Shown: positions 23,417-64,000, counted from the first letter of the stretch. The stretch is DNA of 64,000 bases from an uncultured Verrucomicrobiota bacterium (GCA_964503335.1 CAZCZZ010000003.1:41384-105383), one strand, 5' to 3'. The notes: generated by a model from the sequence alone, not told the origin. A program made the numbers and translations.

Positions 23417-23691
23417 TCCTCGTCAAATTCTCAATCGTAATCGTAATCTCAATCATCCGCTCGTCATTATCCGTAGTCCTCTTTCCTATCTTTGGAACGT
23501 CGACCAGCGCCCTCCTGCCCTGTAGTCCGCCCCCGGCGTCAAGCCTTCCAACACGATCCCCCCTGTATCATTCACCGCAGGCTGCCACGTGAGAGTCGCT
23601 TGCCGCGCCTCACCGCGGTCGCGCAATGATGATGCGACACTGCCGCATCAAACGGGGCGTCACCACGTTCGAGCTGGCGCGCTGCAGCCGG

Positions 23692-26138: not shown

Positions 26139-26504
26139 CTATCCACCGGCGTGTGGTTGGCCATCCCCTGCCTTGTTTCCCAGAGTTCCCCAACCGTCCG
26201 AATAGCCTCCGAATGGTTTTGCCATCTCGTCGAGGTCATCTTGTGCCAAGATAATTGCCTCATACGCGGGGACCATTTGTTTCGAACAGTAGCATGTCCA
26301 GGTTTGCGATTCAGAGTCGCGTTCGACTTTGGGTTCGAATCCGAGTGTCCTAACCCGTTCAGCGAATTGTCGACCTGTCCTTTCATCTGGCACAGCAACC
26401 ATGAAGTCGACCAGCATCGGTTTGGTCATGTCGGACCCGTCACCCGCCACACGTCTGAGTGCATCTCCGTCCGCATTCTCAGGATAAGACATCATCGTAT
26501 CCAT
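26139..26504 (-). CDS. Hypothetical protein, RraB-like (regulator of ribonuclease activity B / DUF695-like).
   Basis: ~120 aa acidic protein with VDFMVAVPDERTGRQFAERVRTLGFEP pattern. Family call is tentative. Confidence 0.35.
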   Translation of the reverse strand: MDTMMSYPENADGDALRRVAGDGSDMTKPMLVDFMVAVPDERTGRQFAERVRTLGFEPKVERDSESQTWTCYCSKQMVPAYEAIILAQDDLDEMAKPFGGYSDGWGTLGNKAGDGQPHAGG

Positions 26505-26824
26505 TTCGGCCAACGTCTAATCTACCGCATGACACTTTTGCTGGCGACGCGCCTTGATTTGTCGAAAGTGAGCAAAAATTCGTCCGGTTCGTGGGCCCAA
26601 GCCTAGCAGGGCGATGCCTTTGGGTAAAGTGACCAGCGGGATGGATTAGCGTCGTGAGTTTCCGTGCGCGTGCTTGACCCACAGTTCCGTTCTGTGCGGT
26701 ATATCATGGGTCTTCGATTCAACTTTGCCTCCCAGATGCACAAGAAGATTGCGAAGCGGGTGGCGGACGATTGATGCGAACGGGTCCGGGGTCGGCGACC
26801 CCGGCCACAGACGAGGGCCAGGAG

Positions 26825-26875
26825 TTTCCAATCCTTGGAAAGGTGCGCGATGAGGGCTTCCAAGGATTGGAAAGG
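26825..26875. promoter_or_regulatory. Pair of 15-bp palindromic sites TTCCAA-N3-TTGGAA (TTCCAATCCTTGGAA and TTCCAAGGATTGGAA), centres 32 bp apart.
   Basis: Read directly from the sequence. The identical motif pair with the same 32-bp spacing recurs at 63640-63690. Confidence 0.6.
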
Positions 26876-26920
26876 ACGGTCGGAGTATCCGTTGCGGAAG
26901 GTTTCCTCCTCGCTGTTTTG

Positions 26921-27120
26921 TGTCATCTCACGGCTGTTCTGACCGGGGAGTCTGCTGTTCTGCGCGGGAACAGCCTGCTCCGGGCAAGAACAGTGCTGTT
27001 CCGGGACAGATCAGCGCTGTTCCGTGTCAGGACACGCTGCTTTTCGACAGAACAGCGTTGTTCCGGGTCGGAACAGCGCTGTTCCTGCTCATCGCAGCGA
27101 GTACTTTTGCAAGAACAGCG
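26921..27120. repeat. Array of about 7 imperfect copies of the palindrome GAACAG-N2-CTGTTC(CGGG) with 21-22 bp periodicity.
   Basis: Copies include agaacagtgctgttccggg, acagaacagcgttgttccggg, tcggaacagcgctgttcctg (perfect palindrome) and agaacagcgagctcccg. The array is non-coding. Confidence 0.6.
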
Positions 27121-27266
27121 AGCTCCCGACACACCGCAGCGTGTTCCCGGGTCACCGCGGTGAGGCATTTCAGAGCGTCGCTCGATGTTCTATCGAGAGC
27201 ACGAGATCACCCCACGGGGCATTTGACCGTGGGGCTGATCGCGCTATTGTTTGAGCCGGTTACTGT

Positions 27267-28232
27267 ATGACGGAAAAGACACTTCATTTCGACAATCCGC
27301 GCGAGGCGCAGGATATCTCCGGCAAGCGCGGCGATCTGCTTCCCCGCATTGAAAAGGCTTTCGGCATCCACATCACAGCCCGCGACACGTGGGTGCGCCT
27401 GGAAGGCGAGGCTGAGCCTGTGGAGAAGGCAAACCGGTTCTTCGACCTGCTCCGGCTGGCCCGAAACCAAGGCGTGGTGCTGCGCGAGCATGGGGTGCTT
27501 TTTGCACTGAGGGCGTTTCAGGATGGACGCGAGGACGCGCTCGAACGCCTGTATGCGGACCGGATTGAGGTGGGACAAGGCAAGCCGCCGATTTTCGCCC
27601 GTACCTTCGGCCAGCTCCTCTACCTCGAATCGATCCGGCAAAAGGATTTCGTTTTCGGCATCGGCCCGGCCGGCACCGGCAAGACCTACCTCGCCATGGC
27701 GATGGCGGTCGCTCACCTTCTCCGCGGCGACGTCAGTCGCATCATCCTGACCCGGCCGGCCGTCGAAGCCGGCGAAAAACTCGGCTACCTCCCCGGCGAC
27801 TTCCAGGACAAGGTGCTGCCTTACCTGCGTCCGCTCTACGACGCGATGTACGACATGATGGGACCCGACGACATCGAGCGTCACATGAGCCGTGGCGTCA
27901 TCGAGGTGGCCCCCCTCGCCTACATGCGCGGACGCACGCTGAACCACGCCTTCGTCGTTCTCGACGAGGCGCAGAACACGACGCCGGAGCAGATGAAGAT
28001 GTTCCTGACGCGCATGGGATTCGATTCCAAATGCGTCATCACCGGCGACCTGACACAAGTGGATCTGCCGCCGAACAAGCTCTCCGGCCTCCTCGAAGCC
28101 AAGCGCACGCTGGGCAACATCGAAGGCATCGCGATCATTGAGATGAGCGACGCCGACGTGGTGCGTCACCCGATGGTGCAGCGCATCATCCAGGCCTATC
28201 GCGTCGGACGCGACGAAGCGCAGCGGAAATGA
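27267..28232 (+). CDS. phoH: PhoH-like ATPase.
   Basis: Walker A GPAGTGKTYLAMAMAV and conserved VLDEAQN / ITGDLTQVDLP motifs. ATGA overlap with the ybeY start. Confidence 0.85.
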   Translation: MTEKTLHFDNPREAQDISGKRGDLLPRIEKAFGIHITARDTWVRLEGEAEPVEKANRFFDLLRLARNQGVVLREHGVLFALRAFQDGREDALERLYADRIEVGQGKPPIFARTFGQLLYLESIRQKDFVFGIGPAGTGKTYLAMAMAVAHLLRGDVSRIILTRPAVEAGEKLGYLPGDFQDKVLPYLRPLYDAMYDMMGPDDIERHMSRGVIEVAPLAYMRGRTLNHAFVVLDEAQNTTPEQMKMFLTRMGFDSKCVITGDLTQVDLPPNKLSGLLEAKRTLGNIEGIAIIEMSDADVVRHPMVQRIIQAYRVGRDEAQRK

Positions 28233-62766: not shown

Positions 62767-62908
62767 GCCCCTCCATCTACCACAGATACTCCCACGTGGG
62801 AACTCCCTCGTGCGTCAATCTCAAATTGGAAATCCAAAATCCAAAATCTCACACGCCCCTTGACTCCGCCGCCGCTTCACGGTGAGCTATCGCATTTCCT
62901 CAAGGGGC

Positions 62909-63616
62909 ATGAAAACAAGCATCGTCATACCGCTGTACAACGAAGCCGGCAATGTCGCGCCGCTCGCGCAGGAACTGTCTGCCGTGCTTCCGCAGCTCGG
63001 CGAGGCCGAGGCCATCCTGGTGGACGATGGAAGCCGCGACACAACTTGGGCCGAGATCGAAAAGGCGGCGCAAAAGCATCCTGGCATCCGCGGCATCCGG
63101 TGCGAGCAGAACGGCGGACAATCCTCCGCCATGCTGATCGGCCTGCGCGCCGCCACAGGCGATGTGCTTGTGACCATGGACGGCGACCTGCAGAACAATC
63201 CGGCCGATATCCCGAAAGTCGTCGCCCTCCTCGACCACGTGGATGTCGCCTGCGGCTACCGCGCAAAGCGACGCGATACCTGGTCACGCCGCGTGGCCTC
63301 GCGGATCGGCAACGGCATCCGCAACGTGGTCACAAACGACGGCCTCCGCGACACGGGCTGCAGCCTCAAGGCCTTTCATCGGAAATGCCTCGACGATCTC
63401 CCCTCGCTGAACGGAACCCACCGCTTCATGGGTGCCTACTTCCGCCTGAACGGACGCAGCATCGAGCAGATCGCCGTCGACCACCGCGCGCGGACGCACG
63501 GCGTCTCCAAATACACCAACCTCAAACGCCTCCCCCGCACCGCCTTCGACCTCATCGGCTTCCTCTGGTACCGCAGCCGCGTCCTGAAGCCGATCAAGAC
63601 CACCACGACGCGCTGA
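62909..63616 (+). CDS. Family 2 glycosyltransferase, polyprenol-phosphate glycosyltransferase type (GtrB/Dpm1-like).
   Basis: TSIVIPLYNEAGNV N-terminus, LVDDGSRD and DGDLQNNP motifs. The ORF track starts at 62882. Confidence 0.75.
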   Translation: MKTSIVIPLYNEAGNVAPLAQELSAVLPQLGEAEAILVDDGSRDTTWAEIEKAAQKHPGIRGIRCEQNGGQSSAMLIGLRAATGDVLVTMDGDLQNNPADIPKVVALLDHVDVACGYRAKRRDTWSRRVASRIGNGIRNVVTNDGLRDTGCSLKAFHRKCLDDLPSLNGTHRFMGAYFRLNGRSIEQIAVDHRARTHGVSKYTNLKRLPRTAFDLIGFLWYRSRVLKPIKTTTTR

Positions 63617-63639: not shown

Positions 63640-63690
63640 TCTTCCAACCATTGGAAGTCTCGCTGGGAGAAGTTCCAAGGATTGGAAATC
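63640..63690. promoter_or_regulatory. Second pair of TTCCAA-N3-TTGGAA palindromes (TTCCAACCATTGGAA and TTCCAAGGATTGGAA), centres 32 bp apart, ~130 bp upstream of the ATG at 63817.
   Basis: Read directly from the sequence. Same motif, spacing and orientation as at 26825-26875. Confidence 0.6.
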
Positions 63691-63816: not shown

Positions 63817-64000
63817 ATGAAGAGCATATCGCAAGTAAGTCTGTCCGCACTCGTCGTTGTTGCAACAACCCTGAGTGCACAGGCCAGAGACGAAGCCAAG
63901 TGGCGGCCCGCCGTCGACCCGAAGCCGCTCACGGAGCAGGTGAACAAAGGCCTCGCCTGGATCATCGAGCACCAGAACGGTGATGGCGGCTGGAACCAGG
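63817..64000 (+). CDS. Secreted prenyltransferase/squalene-oxidase-repeat protein (partial; continues past the window end). Paralog of 92..1282.
   Basis: MKSISQVSLSALVVVATTLSAQA signal peptide, then GLAWIIEHQNGDGGWNQ. Compare GVKWLLAKQSEGGYWSN in the first gene. Confidence 0.5.
   Translation, partial: MKSISQVSLSALVVVATTLSAQARDEAKWRPAVDPKPLTEQVNKGLAWIIEHQNGDGGWNQ

Follow-up and report, generated by a model that had tools for sequence, protein, structure and literature searches.

The window analysed here is a stretch of 64,000 nucleotides from an uncultured Verrucomicrobiota bacterium (GCA_964503335.1, CAZCZZ010000003.1:41384-105383), and the element in question is a short palindrome, TTCCAA-N3-TTGGAA, that occurs in it as two close pairs. 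Pair 1 lies in a 753-bp gap between two divergent genes, an RraB-like gene (26139-26513, minus strand) and phoH (27267-28232, plus strand), both confirmed with Pfam; it is 312 nt from the RraB-like start codon and 394 nt from that of phoH. Pair 2 follows a GT2 glycosyltransferase gene, identified with Pfam (62882-63616, plus strand; stop codon 63614-63616), and precedes a gene for a secreted prenyltransferase-repeat-like protein whose ATG is at 63817. Scanning the window for exact matches to TTCCAANNNTTGGAA returned these four sites (26826-26840, 26858-26872, 63642-63656 and 63673-63687), and 100 dinucleotide-preserving shuffles of the window returned none. A sequence-only reading of the same DNA had already picked out the four copies, as the exact matches bear out. 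Of its start positions 63642 was right, and 26827, 26859 and 63674 were each off by one base; its placing of pair 1 between the divergent RraB-like and phoH genes, and of pair 2 about 130 bp upstream of the prenyltransferase-repeat gene, agrees with the gene map. It did not mention how close pair 2 stands to the end of the glycosyltransferase gene. The features are as follows, none of them with an assigned strand.

26825-26841: extended palindrome of site 1a, TTTCCAA-TCC-TTGGAAA
26826-26840: site 1a, TTCCAATCCTTGGAA, with left part TTCCAATCC and right arm TTGGAA; exact match
26841-26857: spacer of pair 1, 17 nt, AGGTGCGCGATGAGGGC; middle rich in G+C, as in spacers elsewhere
26858-26872: site 1b, TTCCAAGGATTGGAA; exact, reverse complement of site 1a, 32 bp start to start
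63642-63656: site 2a, TTCCAACCATTGGAA; begins 25 nt past the GT2 glycosyltransferase stop codon
63657-63672: spacer of pair 2, 16 nt, GTCTCGCTGGGAGAAG; rich in G+C
63673-63687: site 2b, TTCCAAGGATTGGAA; 31 bp start to start, ending 129 nt before ATG 63817

Within pair 1 each site is the exact reverse complement of the other across 16 nt, making an inverted repeat; the sites of pair 2 lack this relation.

A phased palindrome in many genomes

We scanned 185,579 species-representative genomes for two exact sites separated by 5-35 bp. At least 120 stretches from at least 47 metagenome-assembled genomes (MAGs) matched, against about 0.07 pairs expected by chance in the whole collection by our own arithmetic. 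Among the matches listed, the taxonomic labels (the depositors' own) are almost all Kiritimatiellia, Kiritimatiellales, Pontiella or Tichowtungia, or else the older and broader Lentisphaerae and Verrucomicrobia. The 120 loci that we fetched from among these matches (L001-L120, 860 kb) hold 394 exact sites, with one extra array in every 12 kb or so, and a negative control of 80 unrelated PhoH-bearing metagenome loci (420 kb, PhoH identity at most 55%) holds none. Searched for genome-wide, the motif is therefore abundant, largely in the manner of a generic repeat of the repetitive extragenic palindromic (REP) kind, and pairing of the 32-bp type is present at its other occurrences, where it is the rule. 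A literature search whose coverage stopped short of subscription journals turned up no description of the palindrome, which is apparently undescribed so far.

The distances between neighbouring sites are strikingly regular. Our scan favoured no start-to-start spacing between 20 and 50 bp, and every spacing in that range, for 196 neighbouring pairs in the 120 loci, belongs to one of three classes, with no spacing between the classes among the 394 sites.

21-22 bp: 15 pairs
30-33 bp: 171 pairs (91 at 31 bp, 72 at 32 bp)
42-44 bp: 10 pairs

These are two, three and four turns of B-DNA (about 21.5, 31.5 and 42.5 bp). The spacing at the two window loci, which had been described as an identical 32 bp, is 32 bp in pair 1 and 31 bp in pair 2. 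At least eight cases at 42-43 bp have no decayed site in the middle, which makes that class a genuine one; longer gaps occur at 53, 62-64, 73-74, 82 and 95 bp, and most of them hold a decayed site in phase. Viral contigs were uninformative, with only 16 stretches matching, several of them off-phase repeats in low-GC contigs. In five such contigs from unrelated viruses (L203, L205, L206, L210 and L214) TTCCAA-N3-TTGGAA recurs at 28, 36, 45 and 60 bp, and these are probably different repeat families; their off-phase spacings tell us that the search method does not itself force phasing.

Arrays contain up to six sites. Two rumen MAG species share the same symmetric six-site layout of 22-31-31-31-22 bp (L029:7580-7730 and L084:5852-6002) with diverged spacers and centres, a conservation that suggests a defined higher-order complex. 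Arrays have grown in part by tandem duplication: adjacent spacers are 48% identical, compared with 35% between arrays, and the figure reaches 81-88% in L040 and L085. A CRISPR-like reading of these repeats was rejected, given units of 31 bp, two to six repeats per locus, many loci per genome and sites inside genes as well.

The element itself is a palindrome of 15-19 bp, (TT)TTCCAA-N3-TTGGAA(AA), with an extended consensus of TTTTCCAA-N3-TTGGAAAA, or AAA(S)TTCCAA...TTGGAA(S)TTT. Its specificity is sharp, with 394 exact sites, while one-mismatch sites number 83 and two-mismatch sites 44. Complete palindromes account for 63% of the TTCCAA and TTGGAA hexamers, and isolated half-sites are not enriched (TTCCAA 231 and TTGGAA 229, within the 112-361 found for hexamers of similar composition). 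The central trinucleotide is a genome-specific "dialect", as four genomes illustrate.

bin-1020: TCA/TGA in 76 of 77 sites
CAISWQ: GCC/GGC in 25 of 39 sites
DAOLCW: ACC in 4 of 4 sites
JAOSKE: CCC/GGG in 6 of 10 sites

Spacers are not conserved in sequence and have their composition in common, with A/T at the edges and G+C in the middle (about 90% G+C across the central nine positions in bin-1020). One exception is a partly conserved GC hairpin (CCGGCTGAGCCGG; GCAGGCTGAGCCTGC) in spacers of the 42-43-bp class, common to two loci of one MAG (L006:1848-1928, L006:4506-4562 and L020:6885-7025); one such unit resembles an in-frame insertion of 66 nt in a Mur ligase gene, and together they may represent a composite and possibly mobile sub-type.

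The window genome is outside the sampled loci. Its nearest sampled relative, L025 from bin-1020, shares with it a synteny of three genes at 37-57% protein identity, and array positions have turned over between the two.

Gene ends, coding sequence and the transcript

Positions were read against the calls of a self-trained caller with a simple codon score, about 30 of which were checked with Pfam. Coding sequence makes up 85% of the DNA yet takes in only about 40% of the array midpoints, many of the latter being artefacts of over-extended start codons. Of the intergenic multi-site arrays, 43 of 88 (49%) start 0-40 bp past a stop codon, where only 10% of random intergenic spans do; arrays show no enrichment near gene 5' ends (17% of intergenic arrays, 12% of random spans). 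Array density per kb runs from 1.36 in convergent gaps through 0.95 in co-directional gaps to 0.57 in divergent ones. Ten genes flanking arrays in convergent gaps were verified with Pfam, among them the neighbours Wzy/MurJ, UxaE/FAD oxidoreductase, MntP/beta-CASP RNase and SBF/GH57, and some convergent gaps of 80-130 bp (L060, L100, L023) contain the array and nothing else. Other arrays lie upstream of alaS, purM (L035, a divergent gap), mreC, a sulfatase gene and genes for giant secreted proteins. The flanking genes, a kinase among them, have no function in common, and when 726 nearby proteins were clustered with blastp no family recurred beside the arrays. The preference for stop codons and convergent gaps may mean that sites avoid promoter and coding constraints; alternatively, the arrays may work at gene ends as a boundary, roadblock or topological barrier.

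This distribution bears directly on the interpretation first offered for the window, in which a dimeric transcription factor binds the pairs cooperatively as operators of a local repressor that governs a regulon of secreted glycan-active proteins. The whole-turn geometry does speak for cooperating dimers, across 196 neighbouring pairs in 120 loci, and suits a tetramerising repressor (PMC12051234). The secreted prenyltransferase-repeat-like gene does lie 129 nt downstream of the end of pair 2, and the sulfatase and large secreted protein genes just mentioned have arrays upstream of them. The local operator role fares differently. Convergent gaps need no promoter, so the arrays verified in them leave it unsupported, as do those inside housekeeping genes and the many copies in each genome. 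With flanking genes unrelated and no recurrent family beside the arrays, a coherent regulon is ruled out, for a motif that is high in copy number, present in at least 47 genomes, sited mostly after stop codons and in convergent gaps, and found within genes. Nor does the window favour it: pair 1 is flanked by RraB and PhoH, which are not glycan-related, and the gene at 92-1282, which had been assigned to the same family as the gene after pair 2, has only a weak similarity to it over 33 residues (E = 0.006) and no site in the 91 bp available upstream. The distribution already contradicts the local operator model, which we consider very improbable indeed.

A preference for the first 40 nt after a stop codon could also betray an element of the transcript. 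Hairpins formed by single sites, or from site to site, would then be unconventional and often bidirectional terminators, or stabilisers of mRNA 3' ends, as REP hairpins are. Besides the excess after stop codons and the peak of density in convergent gaps, some with no other content, many sites have an A-run before and a T-run after them (as in AAAGTTCCAA...TTGGAACTTT, with a folding energy of -9.3 kcal/mol). ACC/CCA centres, not GGT/TGG, face the upstream gene in 18 arrays as opposed to 4, a strand bias that also speaks for an RNA element. Pair 1 of the window folds as a 16-bp hairpin (-33.9 kcal/mol, z = -4.8), although its advantage over shuffles comes solely from arms that happen to be exact complements; pair 2 has no such advantage (z = -0.64), and the hairpin of a single site is worth -5.1 kcal/mol. 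Rfam had no family at its gathering score in the 64-kb window, and a permissive scan of 26400-27400 gave only a sub-threshold and meaningless match of the mir-362 hairpin to pair 1, at 25 bits where 80 are needed.

Further signatures of RNA were sought across the loci. With each site read in the direction of the upstream gene, TCA and its complement TGA are nearly balanced as centres (26 and 24 sites with a 60-nt limit, 27 and 28 with 80 nt), and the flank logo, oriented by transcription, is symmetric with no consistent downstream T-run. There is no sense-strand wobble bias among single-mismatch sites, which keep G-U in nine cases and A-C in 15. A hairpin centred on the spacer was rejected: self-complementarity (2.87 pairs) equals that of composition-matched chimeric controls (3.09), and there is no covariation. 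Canonical terminators, a hairpin plus T-run, mark only 39 of 326 gene ends (12%; downstream gap at least 45 bp; the 120 loci and the window), so termination there must mostly use other mechanisms. They are neither associated with arrays nor exclusive of them (odds ratio 0.79, p = 0.68), and the idea that arrays substitute for them was rejected for that lack of association; at no more than seven of 69 array-bearing gene ends is a site hairpin followed by the T-run of an intrinsic (Rho-independent) terminator. Quantised spacing at 21-22, 30-33 and 42-44 bp has no rationale in RNA, and sites occur in divergent 5' gaps (pair 1; L035 at purM), directly before start codons and within genes. We consider a role at RNA 3' ends unlikely.

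The sites within genes deserve their own account. Confident interior coding sequence, 390 kb in all, contains 22 exact sites, where 100 codon-order shuffles gave none; neighbouring intragenic sites are 31-33 or 42 bp apart. Pfam domains span sites in MnmE, AroB, SufBD, TrpF, NamZ and a Mur ligase, and exact pairs in conserved genes are found at five loci.

L102:260-1762: MnmE
L110:603-1712: AroB
L055:2031-3320: SufBD
L096:4599-5228: TrpF
L119:5852-7012: NamZ

Depending on the frame, the sites encode F-Q-x-L-E, S-K/N-x-W-K or P-x-x-G-K (also P-N-x-G-K). Alignment to solved structures puts the MnmE pair and the AroB sites in the place of native residues, with nothing inserted; they arose by substitution. 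The Mur ligase gene has the sole apparent insertion, an in-frame segment of 66 nt with a GC hairpin, judged as such by what is generally known of MurF sequences. Intragenic sites in excess of shuffle expectation, and made by substitution, point to a DNA-level signal that would be under selection, or subject to drive, genome-wide.

Spread by copying is the alternative that the repeats themselves bring to mind. A selfish element of the REP/REPIN type (REPIN, a paired REP) or of the miniature inverted-repeat transposable element (MITE) type would be copied by a dedicated transposase, such as a Y1 enzyme resembling the REP-associated tyrosine transposases (RAYTs), or by local duplication, and kept where tolerated. 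It would account for high-copy, mostly extragenic arrays at gene 3' ends and in convergent gaps, for centres that hardly vary within a genome, for the tandem duplications of L040 and L085, for the turnover of positions between the window and syntenic L025, and for the Mur ligase insertion, a relative of whose spacer occurs elsewhere in the same genome. Transposition would not be expected to produce strict three-class whole-turn spacing, however, or pairs in MnmE and AroB that came by substitution. The arms are unchanged in at least 47 species-level genomes, whereas REP elements are generally species-specific; from locus to locus within a genome the spacers and flanks keep their composition but not their sequence; and no transposase was linked to the arrays among the 726 nearby proteins, most of which were never Pfam-scanned. 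This explanation, too, is unlikely, and if anything a shade less credible than an RNA element.

Molecular drive offers another route. A receptor, or a repair or defence protein, might favour DNA that bears the motif, so that copies would build up across the genome in any tolerated place; the motif would then be a tag of self-DNA comparable with the DNA uptake sequences (DUS) and uptake signal sequences (USS). Genome-specific centres, copies within conserved genes whose peptide frames tolerate them, an enrichment of inverted pairs at gene ends where intergenic DNA is permissive, and the fast turnover of individual positions are all in keeping with this. The enriched unit is nevertheless the whole palindrome with its fixed 3-nt centre, and half-sites are not enriched, unlike DUS/USS; intergenic enrichment, at about 50-fold, is well above what is generally known of those sequences; and whole-turn pairing is left unexplained. 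An uptake-like tag strikes us as quite improbable.

Seen against these loci, pair 2 is a typical member, standing 25 nt after a stop codon with 31-bp spacing and a G+C-rich spacer, and pair 1, in its divergent gap, is of a minority type. When up to two mismatches are allowed the window yields one extra site, with 1.45 expected by chance.

23483-23497, no strand assigned: weak near-match, possibly a decayed site, TTCCTATCTTTGGAA, one mismatch

It is 66 nt past a methyltransferase stop codon, in the convergent gap 23417-23691 between methyltransferase and FAD-oxidase genes. A lone TTCCAA stands at 23546, exactly 63 bp beyond it (two units of 31.5 bp). On their sequence and spacing the two may be a decayed array.

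The gap that holds pair 1 has other features. A putative small open reading frame (ORF) of 36 aa lies just upstream of the pair (26664-26774, plus strand); if it is real, pair 1 would also be downstream of a gene end. A putative GC-rich hairpin, ccggggtc-ggc-gaccccgg, occupies 26786-26805 and ends 20 nt before the pair. An ORF of 107 aa that spans pair 1 (26603-26926, minus strand) was rejected, since its product is Arg-rich and of low complexity, the two sites lie in different frames and it is absent from our gene calls. Between pair 1 and phoH there is a second helically phased array (26912-27160) of about 11 units with a 21-bp period, made of GAACAGC-GCTGTTC palindromes with a perfect copy, GGAACAGCGCTGTTCC, at 27070-27085. 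With up to two mismatches this motif matches eight times in the window where 0.3 are expected; across the 120 Kiritimatiellia loci and the 80 controls the exact 14-mer never occurs and the relaxed form GAACA-N4-TGTTC occurs once. This array may be an operator array of the phoH-ybeY operon, or a tandem repeat.

A putative dimeric DNA-binding protein

What we observe directly is how many copies there are, how they are phased and placed, that they also occur in coding DNA, that their centres are genome-specific and that RNA signatures are lacking. The combination of phasing, a sharp dyad, no RNA signature and intragenic copies is best fitted by a dimeric, sequence-specific protein that binds DNA and whose dimers contact one another along one face of the helix, and the distribution of the motif implies that such a protein would act genome-wide and not on particular promoters. 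We infer, in other words, that the palindromes are phased sites for a putative dimeric, oligomerising, sequence-specific protein, with a likely architectural or boundary role. The protein, its binding and the effect of that binding are proposed on the strength of sequence, and our confidence in the proposal is slightly better than even.

In outline, each palindrome would be bound by one dimer, and dimers on adjacent sites would be in contact on the same face of the helix, giving tetramers or short filaments. That contact is our proposed reason why sites stand two, three or four turns apart in arrays of up to six. Sites would accumulate where coding and promoter constraints are absent, in the 40 bp after stop codons and in convergent gaps, and would also be written into conserved genes by substitution. 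The protein might serve as a nucleoid-associated protein, an insulator, a transcriptional roadblock or a topological barrier at gene ends. A bolder version would have a hitherto unrecognised chromosome-wide protein-DNA system in the Kiritimatiellia, in which tetramers or filaments of a conserved protein on phased arrays punctuate gene ends, serving as boundaries, roadblock terminators or topological barriers where canonical intrinsic terminators are scarce, the intragenic sites reflect strong selection and the dialects record co-evolution of the protein with its sites. We offer this version tentatively, doubting it rather more than we believe it.

Several points weigh against a DNA-binding protein. 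The sample is biased: only loci with exact pairs were picked and the search pattern allowed a single form of the arms, which hides any variant arms and the full taxonomic spread. The motif is sparse in the window genome (two pairs in 64 kb), which is only distantly related to the sampled MAGs, and gene positions depend on a home-made caller. Neither a candidate binder nor a regulon emerged when the 726 proteins were clustered. The preference for the first 40 bp after stop codons could instead reflect a function at RNA 3' ends, and the unexplained orientation of the ACC/CCA centres is not predicted by a purely symmetric function in DNA. Finally, the near-uniform centre within a genome, as in bin-1020, and the growth of arrays by tandem duplication would fit copy-driven spread as well.

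If a protein of this kind does exist, a whole bacterial class carries a sharp, high-copy DNA signal hitherto undescribed, and its binder could be a new nucleoid-associated or boundary protein. It could help to explain how operons are delimited in the GC-rich genomes of the Planctomycetes-Verrucomicrobia-Chlamydiae (PVC) group, where terminators of the hairpin-plus-U type are rare. Cultured Pontiella, Tichowtungia and Kiritimatiella make the question directly testable. There is practical value too: the motif offers a simple lineage marker when Kiritimatiellia contigs are binned. It is also a caution for annotation: such pairs of palindromes should not be labelled local operators.

Relation to known systems

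Lrp/AsnC- and ComK-type sites are dyads of 13-15 bp about three turns apart, on which oligomers wrap or bridge DNA, and ComK boxes come in discrete classes spaced by one, two or three turns. Both belong to promoter-proximal regulators with degenerate, A/T-rich sites. The phased dyads are alike, whereas the present motif is sharply defined, sits at gene ends and is spread genome-wide. HIP1 of the cyanobacteria, the highly iterated palindrome GCGATCGC, is 8 bp long, common in coding DNA and with no settled function, that forms no phased pairs or arrays. It resembles our motif in being over-represented throughout a phylum or class in coding and non-coding DNA.

REP elements and their composites, the bacterial interspersed mosaic elements (BIMEs), of Enterobacteria and Pseudomonas are likewise high-copy, clustered palindromes at gene 3' ends and in convergent gaps that are rarer in divergent ones, and REP elements are docking sites for architectural proteins (IHF, gyrase). 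They are species-specific, imperfect, 20-40 nt long, joined by conserved linkers and tied to RAYT transposases. Here, in contrast, a core of 12-16 nt is identical in at least 47 species, spacers vary, spacing is by whole turns and sites have entered genes by substitution. REP elements are strictly extragenic, and this motif has 22 interior coding sites; its spacers are 35% identical between arrays, the local tandem duplicates and the GC-hairpin spacer of one MAG being the exceptions to this lack of a conserved linker.

The geometry recalls NrdR. Its tetramers need an integer number of helical turns between two palindromic boxes of 16 bp, with linkers of 15-16 or 25-26 bp, as experiments have established (PMC12051234). 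Ours, too, are paired palindromes of about 16 bp whose centres are an integer number of turns apart, with spacers of 16-17 or 27-28 bp and an additional class of 6-7 bp, and the predicted binder would likewise be a tetramer, a dimer of dimers. The NrdR consensus, as generally known, is unrelated to TTCCAA/TTGGAA. NrdR boxes stand only upstream of nrd operons, a few per genome, whereas the Pfam-checked genes beside our arrays are unrelated to nrd and the motif is high-copy, mostly after stop codons, in arrays of up to six and in coding DNA as well.

Uptake sequences offer a further likeness. DUS have species dialects, intragenic copies in tolerated frames and a permissive intergenic enrichment as inverted pairs at gene ends (PMC3630211), and dialects, frequent intragenic copies and inverted gene-end pairs recur here. 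DUS and USS are, however, oriented 9-12-mers abundant as single copies, and here only the complete 6-3-6 palindrome is enriched, in phased pairs. In geometry the motif thus matches NrdR boxes and in distribution REP elements or uptake sequences, yet it is a member of none of these families; if the proposed reading is right, the signal brings together NrdR-type geometry, the gene-end arrays of REP/BIME and the dialects and intragenic copies of uptake sequences, which have so far been seen separately.

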